Assembly: GCA_021851895.1 (NCBI GenBank)
Contig: JAJZQJ010000003.1
Span: forward strand, 1-63,420
Length of the DNA stretch: 63,420 nt
Direction of reading: 5' to 3'
DNA from: a bacterium
GTDB taxonomy: Bacteria > Patescibacteriota > Minisyncoccia > Phycocordibacterales > UBA6899
Shown: positions 503-63,420 of the stretch, one piece after another
Layout of the letters: every line of letters begins with the position of its first letter
Position numbering within the stretch: the stretch's first letter is position 1
Translations under genes and position numbers: made by a program
The notes under the pieces: generated by a model
Databases searched by the model: none
What the model was told of the DNA's origin: nothing
What the model saw: only the letters and a program-made list of their open reading frames with translations

Positions 503-573
503 CTACGGGACTTGGAATCGAACCAAGATTAAAGGCTTCAAAGGCCTCTGTCCTACCTTTAGACGATCCCGTA
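503..573 (-). tRNA. tRNA-Gln (anticodon UUG)
   Basis: Manual cloverleaf on the reverse complement: acceptor TACGGGA/TCCCGTA, D-stem GTCT/GGAC, anticodon stem GAGGC/GCCTT, loop CTTTGAA, T-arm CTTGG-TTCGATT-CCAAG, discriminator G. No encoded CCA. Confidence 0.85.
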
Positions 574-41467: not shown

Positions 41468-42436
41468 ATGTCATTGCATCGTAAACGAGTGGCGGTGGTA
41501 CGTGGTGGACCTTCCGCGGAATATAGCGTTTCATTGAAGACTGGTGAGGCCGTTCTTCGCCACCTCAATAGAGAGAAATATCAACCCCATGACGTCGTGC
41601 TCACACGCGATGGTGTTTGGTATATCAATGGTGTGCGCTCAACATTTGCAGACATCGCACAGCATTCGGATGTGATCTTCAACGCGATGCATGGTGAATT
41701 CGGTGAGGATGGTAAAGCACAGCAATTATTCCAATCATTCGGAATCCCTTATACAGGATCAGATGCGGTTGCTTCGGCGATCGGTATGCATAAGGGTCTC
41801 GCCAAAGAACGTTTCGCTGATGCTGGTTTAAAGGTCGCAAGAGGAGAGGTCATTCCAAGGGATGCAGAGATGTCTGGTGTTGCGTACCATCTTGCACAGG
41901 ATATGGGTTTTCCTCTTATCGTAAAGCCTGTTACTGGGGGATCTTCCGTTGCTACACGCATTGCGCGCAATGAGACGGATCTCGTCATCGCAATGGATGC
42001 AGCAGCGAAATACGGCGATGTGCTCGTCGAGGAGTATATTGAGGGTAAAGAAGGTACCTGCGCGGTTGTCGACACAGGAGACGGTGAGCATTTCGTTTTG
42101 TACCCAATAGAGATCAGGCCGCATGCTTCAAAGGAGTTGTTTGATTTCGATGCGAAGTACGATGGTAGCTCGGAGGAGATATGCCCGGGGAATTTCACGC
42201 TCGCTATGATGTCTCGGATGCGTGACGCGGCATCGCTCGCACATCGCGCGATCGGTGCTCGTCATTATTCTCGATCGGATTTCATTGTCACACCGTCAGA
42301 CGTATATATTCTCGAAATCAACACGCTTCCCGGTCTCACCGATTCATCACTACTTCCAAAGGCGCTTGAGGCAAGTAACGTTTCTATGTCAGAGTTCTTG
42401 GAGCATGTAATTGAATTGGCATTAAGGGGCAAATAA
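41468..42436 (+). CDS. ddl: D-alanine--D-alanine ligase
   Basis: VAVVRGGPSAEYSVSL, ATP-grasp motifs (IVKPVTGGSSV, EINTLPG). Confidence 0.9.
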   Translation: MSLHRKRVAVVRGGPSAEYSVSLKTGEAVLRHLNREKYQPHDVVLTRDGVWYINGVRSTFADIAQHSDVIFNAMHGEFGEDGKAQQLFQSFGIPYTGSDAVASAIGMHKGLAKERFADAGLKVARGEVIPRDAEMSGVAYHLAQDMGFPLIVKPVTGGSSVATRIARNETDLVIAMDAAAKYGDVLVEEYIEGKEGTCAVVDTGDGEHFVLYPIEIRPHASKELFDFDAKYDGSSEEICPGNFTLAMMSRMRDAASLAHRAIGARHYSRSDFIVTPSDVYILEINTLPGLTDSSLLPKALEASNVSMSEFLEHVIELALRGK

Positions 42437-42462
42437 AACACCATATTCTGGTGTTTTATTTA
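42435..42462 (+). terminator. intrinsic terminator
   Basis: aaaacacc-atattct-ggtgtttt. Confidence 0.7.
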
Positions 42463-42547
42463 TCTCTTTTGGGCGCCCTTTGTGGCCGCTATTGGGGATA
42501 TGATTCACTTGCAAATAATTTTTAATCGTGTATAGTTATTTCCACGC

Positions 42548-42620
42548 GGGCCCATAGCTCAGTTGGTAGAGCAGCGCATTTGCAATGCGAAGGTCGCAGG
42601 TTCAAATCCTGTTGGGTCCA
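42548..42620 (+). tRNA. tRNA-Ala (anticodon UGC)
   Basis: Acceptor GGGCCCA/TGGGTCC with the G3:U70 Ala identity pair, D-arm GCTC-AGTTGGTA-GAGC, anticodon loop TTTGCAA, T-arm GCAGG-TTCAAAT-CCTGT, discriminator A. No encoded CCA. Confidence 0.9.
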
Positions 42621-42665
42621 CAGAGGCAGAAAAAAGAGCGTAAGCTCTTTTTTCTTTTGCCTCTG
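42621..42665. terminator. A/T-flanked hairpin abutting the tRNA-Ala 3' end (bidirectional terminator-like)
   Basis: cagaggcagaaaaaagagc-gtaa-gctcttttttcttttgcctctg. Homologous hairpins at 61797-61840 and 63213-63257. Confidence 0.6.
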
Positions 42666-42832
42666 TGAGACCCAACAGGATTTGAATGGCGGAGGCCGCG
42701 AAGCCGGCCGCTGAGGCTCCCGGCCGAAGCGGCCGTGGCCGAGCCGGGGTCGCGAGCACTTAGCGCTTTTGGATGCAAAGCATCCAAAACGCTTTGTGAC
42801 TCGTGACCAAATCCTGTTGGGTCCTCCATTCC
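42666..42832 (-). ncRNA. candidate structured RNA unit A1: GC-rich core framed by inverted and direct copies of the tRNA-Ala 3' end
   Basis: 42669-42686 is the reverse complement of tRNA positions 42601-42618. 42807-42828 is a direct copy plus TCCA. Core 42687-42806 is homologous to 61530-61595, 61700-61775 and 63111-63190. Strand assignment is inferred. Confidence 0.45.
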
Positions 42833-43040
42833 ACTACAAGTATTTGTATTTTGATTTATGAGGTGACAGAGGGGCAAATCCTGTTGGGTCTCTCTGCTTA
42901 GGAGCGAAGCACCTATTTGCATTTTTGACTCGTGACCAAATCCTGTTGGGTCCTCCATTCTTCTATGAGTATTTGTATTTTTATTTAGTACGCTGAAGAA
43001 TACAAACTCACGTTCGGTTAATACATGCTCAAAACGCAAT
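42833..43040 (-). repeat. degenerate second unit (A2) and leader module of the tRNA-Ala-linked element
   Basis: Further tRNA-3'-end copies at 42875-42890 and 42936-42957. About 70-nt direct repeat 42791-42862 / 42919-42992. 42983-43011 resembles the leader at 61426-61454. Confidence 0.4.
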
Positions 43041-43064
43041 AAAAACACCTCTCGGTGTTTTTAT
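43041..43064 (-). terminator. intrinsic terminator of the small Cys-rich gene
   Basis: aaaaacacc-tctc-ggtgttttt. Confidence 0.65.
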
Positions 43065-43179
43065 TCGTACAACACATTCTCGTGTTTGTTCTACCTTGCA
43101 ACGTCATACGAGCAGGACACTATGAGCCGGGGAGGGCGTCCTCCTGAGATCATAGTGACCCAGTTTCATATAGAGAAAC

Positions 43180-57317: not shown

Positions 57318-58367
57318 ATGGATAACGTCATCGTCGACCTCAAGCAGCAGGGTGATGCGAGCAATGGATCTCAGAATGTTTCTGGTGATCTACCTGAACA
57401 CAAGAAAACGCGCCGCCTTGGCATGATCATCTCAATCATACTGCTTCTTCTTTCATCGGCTCTTTTTGGGGTCGCATACGCTTATTTGTTCACTCCTCCG
57501 ATCGAATTCATTCCGAAAACGATCGTTCGTATCGATGCGGGCGAAAGTGTGCAGGGGATCGCAACGATATTAGCGAACGCGCATATCATCAAATCGCCCG
57601 AAGCATTTGCATTTTTGGTGCGTATAAAGGGGGCTGATACAAAAATGCATCAAGGAGCATATTATTTTGAAACTGCGCCCTCGCTTCCTGCGGTCATTGA
57701 TCGGATCATTTCGAGGGATTATGGAATCGAAAACGTTCGTGTATTGATCCCTGAAGGCTATACACGAAAGGATATGGCAAAAACCTTCTCATCAACTTTT
57801 CCTGACTTCTCTTCAGTCGACTTCATGAATGAGACTGAGAGTCTTGAGGGTTATCTCTTTCCTGATACGTATCGTTTCTTTCGAAATGCAACAAGTGGTC
57901 AGATCGTTCGTGATATGCGTAAAACTTTCAACCTGAAGACGGCTGATCTTCAGAATGAAGCTCTCGCGAAAGGGAAGGATTGGAAGACCATTATGATTGT
58001 CGCGTCGCTTGTTGAGCTTGAGGGTAAGACGAAGGAGGATCGAGGCATGATTGCGGATATCATTTACCGTCGTCTCCAGCAGAATATGCCCTTACAGCTT
58101 GATGCCCCTTTTGTTTACATTATGGATAAAGCCTCATTGCAGCTCACGCAAGAAGACCTGTTCGTACAGTCCCCATATAACACCTATAGAAATAAGGGAT
58201 TACCCCCGACTCCTATCGCATCGCCGGGTATTGAAAGTATAAATGCTGCAGTGAATCCGACGCCGAATGACTATCTCTACTATCTTTCGGATAAGAACGG
58301 TATCATTCACTACGCGAAGGATTTTGCAGAGCATCGCAAAAATAAACAACTTTATCTCGGTCAGTGA
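57318..58367 (+). CDS. mltG: endolytic murein transglycosylase MltG (YceG family)
   Basis: N-terminal TM helix, LysM-like lobe, LEGYLFPDTY, SPYNTY. Confidence 0.85.
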   Translation: MDNVIVDLKQQGDASNGSQNVSGDLPEHKKTRRLGMIISIILLLLSSALFGVAYAYLFTPPIEFIPKTIVRIDAGESVQGIATILANAHIIKSPEAFAFLVRIKGADTKMHQGAYYFETAPSLPAVIDRIISRDYGIENVRVLIPEGYTRKDMAKTFSSTFPDFSSVDFMNETESLEGYLFPDTYRFFRNATSGQIVRDMRKTFNLKTADLQNEALAKGKDWKTIMIVASLVELEGKTKEDRGMIADIIYRRLQQNMPLQLDAPFVYIMDKASLQLTQEDLFVQSPYNTYRNKGLPPTPIASPGIESINAAVNPTPNDYLYYLSDKNGIIHYAKDFAEHRKNKQLYLGQ

Positions 58368-58369
58368 AT

Positions 58370-58396
58370 CAAAAACGCCACCGTGTGGCGTTTTTG
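58370..58396 (+). terminator. intrinsic terminator
   Basis: aaaaacgccac-cgtg-tggcgttttt. Confidence 0.7.
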
Positions 58397-58441
58397 ATTC
58401 TGTGTATATTTCTCGATGCTATGTATGTTATAATTTACTAT

Positions 58442-59647
58442 ATGTCCTTCTTTAAAGGCCTTTTCTCTGGTGGGAAAAAATCCCATCATGTGCTTGTCGT
58501 TGATGTCGGGTCCGGGTCCATTGGAGCTGCTTTGGTGCGCCTCGATCATGGTGTAGAGCCTTTTATCGTTGCCACGTCAAGAGAAACGATACCTTTTCAG
58601 GAAAAGCTCAACGTTCAGCGCTTTGTGACGTTGATGCAAGAATCTCTAGACAAGGCTACGGATGGAGTAATGAAAGAACATGCAGAAATCATCCCGACTG
58701 AAGTCTTTTTTGCACTCGCATCGCCTTGGAATACATCGCAAACTCGTTTGGTTCACCTTGATCAGCCAGATGATTTTCTTATAACCGAGAAAGGGTTTCG
58801 TCAGATCATCGACAAGGAAAGTGCGCTTTTCACCACCACCCCGTTTGATCCGAGCGGCCCCAAGGAACTTCTCAAGAATATTTTGATCGAGTCCCGAGCA
58901 ATGCAGGTGAAATTGAATGGTTATGAAGTTGCTGCACCGATCGGACGAAAGGCGCAAGAGCTTGACATTGCACTTTACCTTTCTGTGATGCCTGAACGCA
59001 TACGCGATTCTTTTGTGCAAACAACGACTCGACGTTGGCCGCACATCACACCGCATTTTCATTCATTTATGTTTGCGGCATTCAATGCTGTTCGCGATAC
59101 GTTCGCAGAGAGTGCATCATTCATCATCGTCGACGTCGCAGGAGAGGTGACTGACGTCGCTCTCGTGCGCGATAATGTCTTGCTTGAGTCCCTGTCATTC
59201 CCATTGGGGTACCATGCGATTACGCGCATGACCATGCGTGAGCTCGGACTTCAGAATGCAGCAGCGATCTCGGAAGTACAACTTTACCTCGAGGGGAAGT
59301 CGGATGCAGGGCGCACCAAAGAGATGGAGGAGATCTTCGCGAAGGCAATTCGTGAGTGGAAGTTGCTTTTCATTGGAGCACTGACACAACTCTCGGAGCA
59401 GTATCCGATTCCGCACGTCATCTATCATTTCGTCGATGAAGACTACGTTGTTCATTATGGTGACGCGTTGCGCGAGTCCGCAGATAGAGTTTTCGGGGAG
59501 GATCAGGGTGAATTTGACGTGCATTCTCTTGATGAAGAGTTTCTTCTTCGCTTCATGAAGCTTGAGGAGGGGCAACGTGCAGATATATTCCTCTGTGTTA
59601 TTATTATGATATTAGAAAAGCTTCTCAATGCAGATGTGAAAGGCTAA
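58442..59647 (+). CDS. actin-like ATPase (ASKHA) fold protein, FtsA/PilM-like
   Basis: VLVVDVGSGSIGAALV (phosphate-1-like) and IIVDVAGEVTDVALV (phosphate-2-like). Start MSFFKG after tgttataat plus 7 nt. Confidence 0.45.
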   Translation: MSFFKGLFSGGKKSHHVLVVDVGSGSIGAALVRLDHGVEPFIVATSRETIPFQEKLNVQRFVTLMQESLDKATDGVMKEHAEIIPTEVFFALASPWNTSQTRLVHLDQPDDFLITEKGFRQIIDKESALFTTTPFDPSGPKELLKNILIESRAMQVKLNGYEVAAPIGRKAQELDIALYLSVMPERIRDSFVQTTTRRWPHITPHFHSFMFAAFNAVRDTFAESASFIIVDVAGEVTDVALVRDNVLLESLSFPLGYHAITRMTMRELGLQNAAAISEVQLYLEGKSDAGRTKEMEEIFAKAIREWKLLFIGALTQLSEQYPIPHVIYHFVDEDYVVHYGDALRESADRVFGEDQGEFDVHSLDEEFLLRFMKLEEGQRADIFLCVIIMILEKLLNADVKG

Positions 59648-61399: not shown

Positions 61400-61796
61400 G
61401 GGCAAACGTAAAACCGTTTCGGTTTGAGTTTGAATGACGCTTCGCGTACTGAATCGGATTCAAGGACTCGTCCCTCTGTCACCTCCATATATTTCATCGC
61501 TTCGCTCGAAATCTATGGGGTGCAGGTGGGGCCAGGGCTCGGCCACGGCCGCTTCGGACGGGTCCTCAGCGGCCGGCTCCGCGGCCTCCGCCCTACGAGT
61601 CCTTGAGGGGGTGGCAACAAAAACAAAAAAGACGCTTTCGCGTCAAGCGAGGACTCGACACGGCTCACAAAGCATTTCATTGCGCTGCGCTTATGAAATG
61701 CTAAGTGGCCGTCGTCACGGCTCGGCGACCCTGCGCTGCGCGAAGACGCGCGAGCGAGGGTGCCCGCCTCCGCCTTTCGAGTCCTTGAGGGGGTGG
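61400..61796 (+). ncRNA. candidate structured RNA: conserved 34-nt leader plus two tandem units (B1, B2) framed by tRNA-Lys 3'-end-derived arms
   Basis: Leader 61400-61433 is near-identical to 62923-62956. Antisense arms at 61461-61470 and 61651-61658 pair with sense arms at 61596-61605 and 61777-61784. GC-rich cores are homologous to 42687-42760 and 63131-63190. Strand is inferred. Confidence 0.45.
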
Positions 61797-61840
61797 CAAC
61801 AAAAACAAAAAAAACGCTTTCGCGTCTTTTTTGTTTGTTG
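61797..61840. terminator. A/T-flanked hairpin abutting the tRNA-Lys 3' end (bidirectional terminator-like)
   Basis: caacaaaaacaaaaaaaacgc-tttc-gcgtcttttttgtttgttg. A truncated copy lies at 61613-61644. Confidence 0.6.
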
Positions 61841-61913
61841 TCCCCCCTCAAGGACTCGAACCTTGGACCGTCTCGTTAAGAGCGAGCTGCTCTACCAACT
61901 GAGCTAAGGAGGG
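61841..61913 (-). tRNA. tRNA-Lys (anticodon CUU)
   Basis: Reverse complement folds as acceptor CCCTCCT/AGGGGGG, D-arm GCTC-AGTTGGTA-GAGC, anticodon loop CTCTTAA, T-arm CAAGG-TTCGAGT-CCTTG, discriminator A. Has an unusual C1:G72 pair and a G27.A43 mismatch. Confidence 0.8.
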
Positions 61914-61995: not shown

Positions 61996-62361
61996 TCATT
62001 CAGCTTCAGGAAATTCTTGAATTTTCCAAAAGTCATCACGCCGGAGCGAAACTGTCTTCATGCGATCGGGCTGGACGTGGCCATGCCTGTACTCGCCGAA
62101 CTTGTCTGTGCAGACGTTGTCGCCGGTCGTGCGGTTGATCCGATGCATTTTCTTGTTGGTGCAGGTACACTCGCCGATGTGGGGTTCCAGTATGTTCACG
62201 GTGAAGACCTCTTGAGGCTCATCATCTCCTTTGGTCTCCTCCTTCAGAATACCCGTAATCACTCCGACACGCCGCTTCGTGGTATGGTTCCTTTTTGCGG
62301 CCTTTCTGCTGAGAACCACGGTCATGCCTTTGGTGATCACTTCGGGGATGATGGGGGCCAT
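61996..62361 (-). CDS. small Cys/His-rich (zinc-ribbon-like) protein, paralog of 62481-62831
   Basis: AGGAGG SD 6 nt upstream of ATG. ECTCTNKKMHRINRTTGDNVCTDKFGEYRHGH aligns with the neighbour's CSRCNGPVRVNRTTGEAVCKNSDCNHRHGF. Confidence 0.6.
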   Translation of the reverse strand: MAPIIPEVITKGMTVVLSRKAAKRNHTTKRRVGVITGILKEETKGDDEPQEVFTVNILEPHIGECTCTNKKMHRINRTTGDNVCTDKFGEYRHGHVQPDRMKTVSLRRDDFWKIQEFPEAE

Positions 62362-62480: not shown

Positions 62481-62831
62481 CTAGTACTCGTCCTGCATGG
62501 GGCTGAAGTCATCCTTCGCGAGATCGCTGAGGACGACGCCCTGGGGATGGGTGATGAACCCATGCCGGTGATTGCAGTCCGAGTTCTTGCAGACCGCCTC
62601 GCCGGTCGTCCGATTGACGCGGACGGGGCCGTTGCAGCGACTGCAGTTCTCCGCCGTACGGGGAAGCAGGAGCTTGGCCGTGTAGGTGACCTTGATCATG
62701 CCGCGCTCATCGCCGGTGCGATGGACGTCAGTGATCACGGCGGCCCTGAGGCCGGAGACCTTCTTCTTCTCGAGGGCCGACTTGCAGACGAGGATCTGGG
62801 AGCCCTTGGGGATTTCGAGAACTGTGGACAT
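62481..62831 (-). CDS. small four-Cys zinc-ribbon-like protein, strongly GC-rich coding sequence
   Basis: Start MSTVLEIPKG (alternative upstream ATG 62903). Own terminator ggctcgcg-ttat-cgcgagcc at ~62443-62462. Paralogous to 61996-62361. Confidence 0.6.
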   Translation of the reverse strand: MSTVLEIPKGSQILVCKSALEKKKVSGLRAAVITDVHRTGDERGMIKVTYTAKLLLPRTAENCSRCNGPVRVNRTTGEAVCKNSDCNHRHGFITHPQGVVLSDLAKDDFSPMQDEY

Positions 62832-62922: not shown

Positions 62923-63060
62923 GGGCAAACGTAAAACCGTTCCGGTTTGAGTTTGATGGAGCGCAAAGCGCGCTGGTACAGATACTTCTAATACACAGGG
63001 AGCCGAAAAACCCTTTAGGTTTTTGACTCATTGAGTGCTCTGCACGCAGAATAGGATTCT
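62923..63060 (+). ncRNA. leader of the third tRNA-type element locus (conserved 34-nt 5' module plus variable hairpins)
   Basis: gggcaaacgtaaaaccgttccggtttgagtttga preceded by the -10-like TATTTA (62911-62916). A TATAAT also lies at 62875-62880. Confidence 0.4.
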
Positions 63061-63420
63061 GGGACTCGGTCACAAGTCACTAAGTCTTTAGCCAGCAGAG
63101 CTGTCAAAAGCCTAAGTGCTCGTGACCACGGCTCGGCTACAGCCGCTTCGGCTGGGAAGCCTTCAGCGGCTGGCTTCGCAGCCTCCGCCTTTCGAGTCCC
63201 GCCCCGGAGTCACAGTGGCATAAGAAAAAAGAGCTTGCGCTCTTTTTTCTGCCACTGTGCCGGAGAAACGAATCAGACGGGACTCGGTCACAAGTCACTA
63301 AGTCTTTAGCCAGCAGAGCTGTCAAAAGCCTAAGTGCTCGTGACCACGGCTCGGCTACAGCCGCTTCGGCTGGGAAGCCTTCAGCGGCTGGCTTCGCAGC
63401 CTCCGCCTTTCGAGTCCCGC
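63061..63420 (+). repeat. perfect 218-bp tandem repeat (1.65 copies visible, runs off the window) of the GC-rich core, tRNA-like 3' arm and hairpin
   Basis: 63061-63202 is identical to 63279-63420. Each unit has arms GGGACTCG / CGAGTCCC, a core homologous to loci A and B, and hairpin 63213-63257. Confidence 0.85.

Follow-up and report, generated by a model that had tools for sequence, protein, structure and literature searches.

Structured non-coding units behind tRNA and tmRNA terminators form a family found in Patescibacteria

We analysed a stretch of 63,420 nucleotides (nt) of contig JAJZQJ010000003.1 (assembly GCA_021851895.1; hereafter the window), in which the gene for tRNA-Ala(UGC) is followed by a structured, GC-rich, non-coding element that we call unit A. 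The source organism belongs to the Patescibacteria, which account for a large part of bacterial diversity and whose tiny genomes contain little non-coding DNA; homologues of its Ddl put it with Paceibacterota/Lloydbacteria-like bacteria. It is well supported that unit A is one member of a large and so far Patescibacteria-only family of non-coding units situated behind the terminators of tRNA genes and of transfer-messenger RNA (tmRNA) genes. Read along the tRNA strand, such a locus is ordered tRNA (positions 1-55), a1 (positions 56-73), terminator, a2', core and a3, where a2' is an inverted and a3 a direct copy of the tRNA 3' end. No description of these units was found in the literature searched or in Rfam.

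A sequence-only reading of the window had described a tRNA-Ala(UGC) gene at 42548-42620, a hairpin behind it, an exact 18-nt inverted copy of 42601-42618 at 42669-42686, a near-perfect palindrome of about 85 nt and, after a GC-rich segment of about 120 nt, a direct copy of the tRNA end. All were recovered: the gene by ARAGORN and Rfam, the inverted copy by the repeat finder, the hairpin with its arms (42619-42635 / 42651-42667) shifted by 1-2 nt, the palindrome at 42601-42686, the GC-rich segment at 42687-42807 (GC fraction 0.62 against about 0.48 for the window) and the direct copy from 42808, which pairs with a2' over 16 base pairs (bp; 42808-42823) to form the closing helix P0. In tRNA numbering T54 is 42601, C56 is 42603, C72 is 42619 and A73 is 42620, and CCA is absent from the gene sequence. 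The repeat finder gave the terminator hairpin an inner stem of 12 bp, and its counterpart is kept with compensatory changes at L029 and L031 (L numbers denote loci and contigs outside the window). The junction between core and a3 falls exactly at tRNA 55|56, and a3 is identical to the tRNA through 42824. Within the core, hairpin P3' (GGC-GGA-GGCC...GGCC-GA-GCC, with a GCGAAGC mini-hairpin) is followed by GG and then by a long hairpin, P1' (GGTCGCGAGCACTTAG...CTTTGTGACTCGTGAC). The 15-mer AAATCCTGTTGGGTC has five exact occurrences; with up to two mismatches 0.2 would be expected, and none of 100 shuffles reached six. Further direct copies, previously taken as part of a degenerate repeat with a period of about 129 nt, are indeed present at 42875-42892 and 42937-42952 within a 66-nt repeat (91%; spacing 129 nt by repeat finder), but in front of each stands what is left of an older, truncated core, its 3' end, which makes them decayed units and not a plain repeat. 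T-CCA follows the direct copies at 42825-42828 and 42954-42957, though the gene has no encoded CCA; this could be coincidence or the trace of an RNA stage. At other loci it is the tRNA's own trailer, not T-CCA, that continues a3.

The homologous architecture that had been noted at 61400-61840 and 62923-63420 was resolved by a covariance model into four units within 61456-61792 and 63054-63418 (Table 1). The core of B2 is about 53-60% identical to those of B1, A and C1. Unit C2 is cut by the window end, and the tRNA that precedes it must sit beyond 63420 on the minus strand; exact-protein look-ups for this tRNA and for strain variants returned only this contig again or fragments bounded by the repeats. 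The far ends of arrays B and C (61401-61440 and 62923-62965) carry a common module of about 40 nt (GGGCAAACGTAAAACCGTT(T/C)CGGTTTGAGTTTGA), which on the tRNA-sense strand reads as the hairpin AAACCGRAACGGTTT followed by a T-rich stretch, and is possibly a terminator closing the array.

Table 1. Positions of tRNA genes, terminator hairpins, units and unit parts at loci A, B and C of the window.
Feature	Position	Strand	Basis
Promoter-like site of tRNA-Ala (TTGCAA-16-TATAGT)	42509-42536	+	Only sigma-70-like site in 42400-43100, both strands
tRNA-Ala(UGC)	42548-42620	+	ARAGORN; Rfam tRNA 71.4 bits; sequence
Bidirectional terminator-type hairpin (t)	42621-42667	.	Repeat finder; centre of 86-nt palindrome 42601-42686
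a2' of unit A, exact 18-nt inverted copy of tRNA positions 54-71 (42601-42618); 5' strand of P0	42669-42686	+	
Core of unit A, tRNA-sense reading	42687-42807	+	Covariance model 42670-42822, 114.9 bits
a3 of unit A, direct copy of tRNA positions 56-72; 3' strand of P0	42808-42824	+	Sequence, repeat finder
Decayed older unit: 3' end of B1-like core (..TATGAGGTGACAGAGGGG), then direct tRNA-end copy 42875-42892	42845-42892	+	
Second decayed unit: A-like core end (TTTGACTCGTGAC), then direct tRNA-end copy and T-CCA	42922-42957	+	
Unit B1, distal unit of tRNA-Lys array	61456-61610	-	Covariance model 85.6 bits; alignments
a3 of B1	61461-61470	-	
Core of B1	61471-61595	-	
a2' of B1	61596-61613	-	
Remnant of duplicated tRNA-Lys terminator between B1 and B2, with deletion	61612-61648	.	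Compared with 61794-61840
Unit B2, adjoins tRNA-Lys	61643-61792	-	Covariance model 89.5 bits; DNA fold z = -6.0
a3 of B2	61649-61657	-	
Core of B2	61658-61777	-	
a2' of B2	61778-61793	-	
Terminator hairpin common to tRNA-Lys and unit B2	61794-61840	.	Sequence
tRNA-Lys(CUU)	61841-61913	-	ARAGORN, Rfam
Unit C1	63054-63207	-	Covariance model 109.7 bits
a3 of C1	63060-63068	-	
Core of C1	63069-63192	-	
a2' of C1	63193-63209	-	
Terminator-type hairpin between C2 and C1, about 90% identical to tRNA-Ala terminator	63211-63259	.	
Unit C2, cut by window end	63272-63418	-	Covariance model 99.9 bits

We evaluated the distribution of the units with a seed pattern made from two motifs common to five window units (GGCTCGGC.AC ... 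GCCTCCGCC.T.CRA), scanned against 185,579 species with one genome per species. It matched 25 loci, 21 of which were Patescibacteria (Saccharibacteria, Paceibacterota/Parcubacteria, Yonath-, Campbell-, Kaiser- and Lloydbacteria, and Minisyncoccia). The other four, in Mesorhizobium, Streptosporangium, a gammaproteobacterium and a Zixibacterium, were rejected as they lay in coding DNA and scored 10-24 bits against 31-131 for real units. A covariance model, a search that the sequence-only reading had proposed for the units of the three window loci, was built from 22 units and applied to the window and 26 loci; its E-values are rough, and it found 48 units, many missed by the pattern and all in Patescibacteria. 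Dropping the T-loop requirement in a scan of metagenomes gave mostly chance matches in GC-rich DNA, with only L049 and L121 real. All 39 units with upstream sequence either lie 41-76 nt 3' of a co-oriented tRNA or tmRNA gene, a distance of 39-76 nt over every unit evaluated, or occupy the second or third place of a tandem array; a separated copy at L049 is the exception to placement directly behind the tRNA. Hosts comprise His, Leu, Gly, Ala, Arg, Ser, Ile, Gln, Trp, Tyr, Met, Lys and Pro tRNAs and a tmRNA (L005), and 31 of the 41 tRNA genes in unit-bearing loci have at least one unit. Unit-free tRNAs, including the tRNA-Gln of the window, have no inverted 3'-end copy downstream. A known Rfam family had been allowed for beforehand, but against Rfam 15, whose families include ribozymes, Y RNA, tmRNA, HEARO and group II intron domains, only tRNAs pass the gathering threshold, and raising E to 10 adds only spurious microRNA-type matches on the palindrome. 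Short-read contigs of the window organism end within units (L027, L034, L035 and the window end), and those that break there (L027, L035) show that the units are hard to assemble, as an assembly artefact or chance repeats might be. We give that explanation practically no weight, since the architecture recurs in independent assemblies from many studies and phyla and in a closed 696-kb chromosome, and chance expectation is far exceeded. The identity and location of the units are well supported.

The junction between core and a3 is always at tRNA 55|56 (..GTGAC|CGAAT..), and a2' extends 1-2 nt past that point, to position 53/54, and reaches at least position 64. Between them lies a core of about 125 nt with two hairpins, conserved GGCGGAGGC...GCCGAGCC and GCGNAGC tips, so that the core is a branched 'loop' on a P0 stem bearing T-loop and T-stem sequence. 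The direct repeat measures 9-71 nt, with a fixed end (..TCG|, 55|56) and a variable outer end, and is perfect in L001 (71 nt) and L008 (55 nt), where it covers acceptor, trailer and terminator although the inverted copy has already diverged. It is well supported that units whose a3 runs on as a perfect duplicate of trailer and terminator are young copies. In 28 tRNA-proximal units a2' has 93-100% identity to the tRNA over positions 54-63 and 82% at position 64, after which the value falls abruptly to 20-50%, whereas the identity of the direct copy to the tRNA declines gradually. One-sided changes in the acceptor part of P0 mostly leave it unpaired (182 against 42). The maintained helix is thus about 9-11 bp, made of the 3' part of the T-loop and the 3' strand of the T-stem, and the 16-18-bp P0 of window units A and B2 presumably stands at the long, young end of the range. 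Since conservation covers about 9-11 bp and not the whole 16-18 bp, P0 is no mimic of the acceptor end, and a tRNA-like RNA or acceptor-T minihelix mimic was rejected because only positions 54-64 of a2' are conserved and the acceptor part decays to 20-50%. A 4-nt target-site duplication (CGAA) around the core does not work where the T-loop is not palindromic, as in TTCAAAT of tRNA-Ala, and the flanks must be real inverted copies. Also discarded were a retroviral-type primer-binding site, as the complement lacks positions 72-76 and CCA, and a TnpB/omega-RNA-type guide, as an occupied site would retain the target. In the tRNA-Ser units L017, L010 and L021, a2' is split by an extra hairpin of 26-30 nt between its T-stem and acceptor parts. 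At L032 (2620-2971) two convergent tRNA-Ala genes (UGC and GGC), about 230 nt apart, each have their own inverted copy, and the short degenerate core between them contains CUGAUGAG, from which no hammerhead could be drawn.

The core has a conserved fold. RNAalifold gave a three-way junction of P0, a hairpin (GGC-GGA-GGCG ... CGCC-GA-GCC, with a variable tip), two unpaired G and a long irregular hairpin. In the 48-unit alignment 95.6% of cells were paired, compared with 75.8% in column shuffles and 27-43% with partners slid, and changes on both sides occurred in 20 of 26 pairs (245 cells); covariation within P0 is trivial because both strands copy the same tRNA. That the fold is conserved across phyla implies that some factor reads it. 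Hammerhead, HDV, hatchet, K-turn, box C/D-H/ACA, group II domain V and retron readings were compared with the unit consensus by eye and set aside, since junctions were too small, motifs absent or no reverse transcriptase adjacent.

It had been suggested from the sequence that the element might be a convergently transcribed non-coding RNA (ncRNA) mimicking or pairing with the tRNA 3' half. A conserved single-strand fold with strong covariation bears this out in part, but the closing helix is only about 9-11 bp and the strand is the other one. For cores without P0 (22 units), the tRNA-sense strand had a mean z against shuffles of -4.9 and the opposite strand one of -3.7; the former was better in 21 of 22 (Wilcoxon p = 3e-6). 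Minimum-energy structures contained 48 G.U pairs on the tRNA-sense strand and 22 on the opposite one, with G x U composition near-equal. A G.U pair beside the inner helix is kept in 34 of 36 units, its neighbour alternating between U.G and C-G, and on the convergent strand these conserved wobble pairs become mismatches (G.U to C.A). Hairpin tips read GCGAAGC 30 times and GCGNAGC 47 times in the tRNA-sense direction, against 0 and 1 for the complements. The folded strand is therefore tRNA-sense, co-directional with the tRNA and not convergent, as four measures agree. An antisense or mimic RNA transcribed convergently and ending at the bidirectional terminator is accordingly very unlikely: that strand does fold better than shuffles (mean z = -3.7), the terminator is bidirectional and a promoter-like TTGACT-18-CAGAAT lies just upstream of C1 on it, but all four strand tests favour the other strand, the conserved G.U becomes a C.A mismatch and unit A has no such site, no separate promoter for it having been found in 42400-43100 on either strand. 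Folding with DNA parameters of the tRNA-sense strand of A, B2 and C1 gave exactly both hairpins, with z from -5.0 to -6.0 (A, -5.6). GCGNAGC is the 'mini-hairpin DNA' motif, whose stability as DNA greatly exceeds that as RNA and which occurs at single-stranded-DNA priming sites (PMC13037366). Together the GCGNAGC tips and the DNA folds lean towards a single-stranded DNA form, with RNA compatible.

Comparisons between loci suggest what moves. Mean core identity is 0.645 for units of the same genome at different tRNAs, 0.549 for units of different genomes at the same tRNA type and 0.528 for unrelated pairs. In the genome bin P_PACE1 the units of L019 (tRNA-Ser) and L020 (tRNA-Leu) are 98% identical, only from (A)CGGCGGAGGC to CTGCGGGTC, while tRNA, terminator, a2' and a3 are all locus-specific and cognate. 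Conversely, B1 and B2 have different cores with the same tRNA-Lys end, terminator and inverted copy as spacer. The core of unit A is 76% identical to that of C1, which serves a different tRNA, and in two strains with identical ddl, tRNA-Ala, terminator and a2' the divergence starts exactly at the boundary between a2' and core. The core alone thus appears to be the mobile part, and because an attachment sequence of its own would be incompatible with the same core between different cognate flanks, either the flanks are made from the target or only the core is exchanged. The tRNA-Ala unit is kept in relatives with about 71% Ddl identity, where the hairpin sequences are very different. Such orthologous retention alongside within-genome core similarity suggests that a unit persists for long at its locus, whereas cores are swapped or homogenised within genomes. 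In one of these relatives (L029, 4040-4360; 71% Ddl identity) the module of tRNA-Ala, terminator and unit is inverted relative to ddl when compared with window positions 42437-42830.

The explanation we tentatively favour, at slightly less than an even chance, is that the unit is a gene-less cassette that would be copied or exchanged between tRNA 3' flanks at T-loop-derived junctions, by way of a folded single strand of tRNA sense. The two T-loop-derived boundaries of the core would serve as template-switch or crossover points: copying would leave the recipient at the end of a2', run through the donor core and re-enter at tRNA position 56, giving a new tRNA-proximal unit and a direct repeat of the tRNA end and terminator. 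The resulting order would be tRNA, terminator, a2', new core, a, terminator, a2', old core, with the newest unit beside the tRNA, as at locus B, and repeated insertion would build tandem arrays with identical spacers and different cores. At a single-unit locus, re-entry at position 56 would yield the long perfect direct repeat of L001 and L008, whereas re-entry at a3 would replace the core, as could be the case between L019 and L020 and between L031 and L032. At a naive tRNA, snap-back on the terminator palindrome may create a2'. The selected folded form would be a tRNA-sense single strand, DNA more likely than RNA, and its fold would presumably be recognised by a trans-acting enzyme (a recombinase, HUH nuclease, primase or polymerase) or would stall replication; the tRNA gene would stay intact at every step. 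Alternatively, a folded single-stranded circle might exchange with the T-loop in the manner of CTXphi or integrons, which would give the same part order with an extra step for the cognate flanks. Copy-choice at T-loop-derived sequences formally reproduces every junction. The mode of spread and the nature of the active form, DNA or RNA, are matters of inference.

Several points weigh against a mobile cassette of this kind. No enzyme, intermediate or empty-to-filled transition was observed, and the copy-choice scheme would be only a formal fit that calls for up to three coordinated switches at naive sites. Retention of the tRNA-Ala unit in the relatives with about 71% Ddl identity could point to a role for the host instead of selfish persistence. 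Neither G.T wobbles nor purine-rich loops separate DNA from RNA, and the sequence and internal loops (GGA/GA, GGAG...GAAC) are conserved from Saccharibacteria to Paceibacterota beyond what is usual for DNA recombination sites, a degree of conservation that would equally suit a protein-binding RNA. The invariance of the motifs arises partly by construction, since the seed pattern fixes GGCTCGGC.AC and GCCTCCGCC, and the shuffle statistics overstate independence because the sequences are related. Matches found by the covariance model alone, such as L028 and L031, vary the seed motifs, and the helix formed by these 'invariant' motifs shows compensatory variation in the units that only the model found.

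A functional ncRNA co-transcribed with the tRNA is a rival explanation. Read-through would produce a tRNA-terminator-unit RNA with a protein-binding core, in which P0 and the duplicated tRNA end and terminator could provide tRNA-like 3' processing, and it might act as a tRNA-specific regulator, a sponge or a processing aid. The fold on the tRNA-sense strand, the conserved G.U pair and the purine-rich internal loops are consistent with such an RNA. Since there is neither room nor a detectable promoter between terminator and a2', expression of the unit would come from the tRNA promoter; young units finish with a copy of the tRNA's own terminator, and arrays B and C close with a common hairpin module. 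A unit accompanies about half or more of the tRNAs at the loci sampled, and is kept at the orthologous tRNA-Ala of relatives. Nevertheless the unit sits behind an apparently efficient terminator, and many tRNAs, including tRNA-Gln of the window, have none, so that it is dispensable for tRNA function. Decayed, truncated and tandem copies together with core swapping are typical of selfish repeats, the tips are GNA triloops of the DNA mini-hairpin type and not GNRA or UNCG (PMC13037366), the acceptor part of P0 is not kept as a tRNA minihelix mimic would have it, and Rfam gave no match with E up to 10. On balance we consider this RNA rather unlikely.

A trans-acting partner of the favoured cassette was sought among neighbouring genes. 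No integrase, transposase or reverse transcriptase was found, in agreement with the sequence-only reading, among the window open reading frames (ORFs) that were scanned or had precomputed Pfam matches, a few ORFs being matchless and 57318-59647 unscanned. Neither were there any Phage_integrase, recombinase or resolvase among the scanned window ORFs or the clusters of neighbouring ORFs, nor TnpA(Y1), RAYT or TnpB among the scanned ORFs of the 63-kb window, nor a related autonomous transposon with the same ends in the window or 27 unit-bearing loci. All-against-all clustering of ORFs at 21 loci revealed no recurrent gene family beside the units, only ordinary synteny. Between arrays B and C, two small ORFs (61996-62361 and 62481-62831, both on the minus strand) are paralogous, 28% identical and share R.NRTTG..VC...RHG; both lie in a GC-richer stretch, each with a good promoter-like site. 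Neither matches Pfam or NCBIfam, and 1.8 billion proteins yielded only 5 representatives. These orphans may be cargo flanked by the unit arrays, and their rarity argues that they are no general factor.

The tRNA location itself recalls genomic islands. The T-loop is reportedly one of the sublocation classes of tyrosine integrases distinguished by Williams in 2002, and the units resemble tRNA islands and cis-mobilisable elements (CIMEs), which have att sites on both sides but no recombination genes of their own, in that a direct repeat beginning within the T-loop regenerates the 3' end of the tRNA, tmRNA is used, tandem copies accumulate and cargo DNA is possible between tRNA and distal end. 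At L049 (4559-7445) tRNA-Pro and its cognate unit are 2.7 kb apart, the unit being 3' of the tRNA, with AT-rich DNA between them that carries an HTH_3 gene, a fragment of an N6/N4 DNA methylase and a 337-aa ORF without match; foreign DNA has thus entered between tRNA-Pro and its unit. The units might then be scars or miniature derivatives of integrase-bearing islands in the tRNA T-loop, an attP arm beside attR mobilised in trans as in CIMEs, and an accretion of att sites had been among the earlier suggestions. The direct repeat running from the T-loop through the tRNA 3' end and beyond, as with T-loop-class integrases, would fit, as would the tmRNA host (L005), the position of the oldest copy farthest from the tRNA in tandem arrays and the restriction-modification-type genes of the L049 insert. 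The tandem decayed units and direct repeats of that suggestion stand, but there is no linked integrase to go with them and the inverted copy and structured core are left unexplained. Integrase-bearing islands at related loci had been anticipated as an alternative, and no integrase is linked to a unit among the ORFs scanned in the window or at the 27 loci. More than 12 tRNA species and tmRNA host near-identical cores with cognate flanks, which an attP borne by the element cannot yield, and the same core at tRNA-Ser and tRNA-Leu contrasts with one tRNA specificity per lineage. The inverted copy and the compensatory changes of a structure-conserved core are foreign to double-stranded att arms, and no match to a unit was found in IMG/VR viral contigs, GenBank phages or PLSDB plasmids by scan and BLAST. 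An origin as island scars is, in our judgement, improbable.

Two other features of the window concern tRNA genes and gene calls. The tRNA-Gln(UUG) gene (503-573, minus strand) is without a 3' unit, yet its 5' end and D-arm (551-577) have a 24-nt direct copy at 745-768, about 195 nt upstream, and the stretch between them is GC-richer and moderately structured (z = -2.0) with no Rfam match; this may be a different, 5'-side tRNA-associated duplication. ORFs of 148, 157 and 112 aa run through units at 42602-43048 (minus strand), 61434-61907 (plus strand) and 61513-61851 (minus strand). Such unit-spanning ORFs are annotated as genes in the public assembly (L026, 5135-5581), and are almost certainly spurious.

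Among the loci sampled, between one third and three quarters of tRNA genes have at least one unit of 170-260 nt, and neither annotations nor RNA families include such units. They fragment short-read assemblies and generate spurious ORF calls (42602-43048, 61434-61907), and with a covariance model for their detection now defined they provide a sharp phylogenetic and strain-level marker. If they are mobile, they would represent a new mode of targeting tRNA genes, in which flanks are copied from the target, the insertion point in the T-loop is exact and the gene is left intact, and would point to an enzyme that reads a folded single strand. If instead they act as RNA, tRNA genes would have a major partner that had gone unnoticed in a group of organisms very difficult to study.

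Several known systems share part of this architecture. Quasipalindrome correction, or template switching, is copy-choice at inverted repeats, and the units likewise show a perfect inverted copy beside a hairpin and junctions at microhomologies; here, however, the events are recurrent and site-specific and always involve a conserved cassette. Integron attC sites and the forked hairpin of CTXphi attP(+), used by XerCD, are comparable folded single-stranded DNA sites, since the unit fold is strand-specific and its structure more conserved than its sequence; the P0 stem bears the sequence of its double-stranded target just as the CTXphi hairpin mimics dif, and single-strand exchange at 55|56 would give the part order of a unit. 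Unlike attC, units have no R boxes (RYYYAAC/GTTRRRY): they read G-TTCGAA or TTCAAA, in which position 4 is C, not a purine, and the junction is TT|C rather than G|TT, their stem is target-derived, and there is no linked IntI or attI and no integrase in any locus. Retron ncRNAs have a similar topology of P0 and two hairpins, but no reverse transcriptase is adjacent at any locus. With the G4 complementary-strand origin and RSF1010 ssiA the units share GCGNAGC mini-hairpins on one strand of a branched structure of about 120 nt (PMC13037366), whereas a replicon has only one such single-strand initiation signal, which is independent of tRNA genes.

The units come closest to short elements mobilised in trans. 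Miniature inverted-repeat transposable elements (MITEs) and REPINs, which are hairpin-forming doublets of repetitive extragenic palindromic (REP) sequences, are gene-less multi-copy intergenic repeats moved in this way, REPINs by RAYT transposases. Like them, the units are short, non-coding, multi-copy and extragenic beside terminators, form single-strand hairpins, have no gene of their own and are more alike within than between genomes. Of the earlier suggestions, a tRNA-targeting MITE-like element was accordingly the nearest: the gene-less, multi-copy core transferring between loci agrees with it, while the inverted repeats come from the local tRNA, unlike those of any MITE. These sequences (a2' and a3) differ between loci with 98%-identical cores, and the duplication consists of tRNA end and terminator over 9-71 nt instead of a short fixed target-site duplication. 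In contrast to both MITEs and REPINs, units occur only at tRNA and tmRNA 3' flanks, in a single fixed orientation and with the junction at one T-loop nucleotide. Palindrome-associated transposable elements (PATEs) of the IS200/IS605 group and REP/REPIN sequences are defined by strand-specific subterminal hairpins, a lack of inverted terminal repeats and insertion beside a fixed target of 4-5 nt; the units show strand-specific hairpins and a fixed junction beside the T-loop pentanucleotide, but a target-derived inverted copy and a long duplication are not IS200/605 features. MITEs, att scars, attC sites, retrons and tRNA mimics each have a defining property that the units lack, and we could not place the units in any known class. 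They may, although we lean somewhat against it, constitute an unrecognised class of site-specific mobile cassettes confined to Patescibacteria, which would have no protein gene, target the universally conserved T-loop of any tRNA or tmRNA gene, rebuild the tRNA 3' end and terminator on insertion and spread by way of a folded single-stranded intermediate of tRNA sense with the help of a host enzyme or a distant trans-acting one, or else a superphylum-wide structured nucleic acid coupled to tRNA genes with a function for the host.

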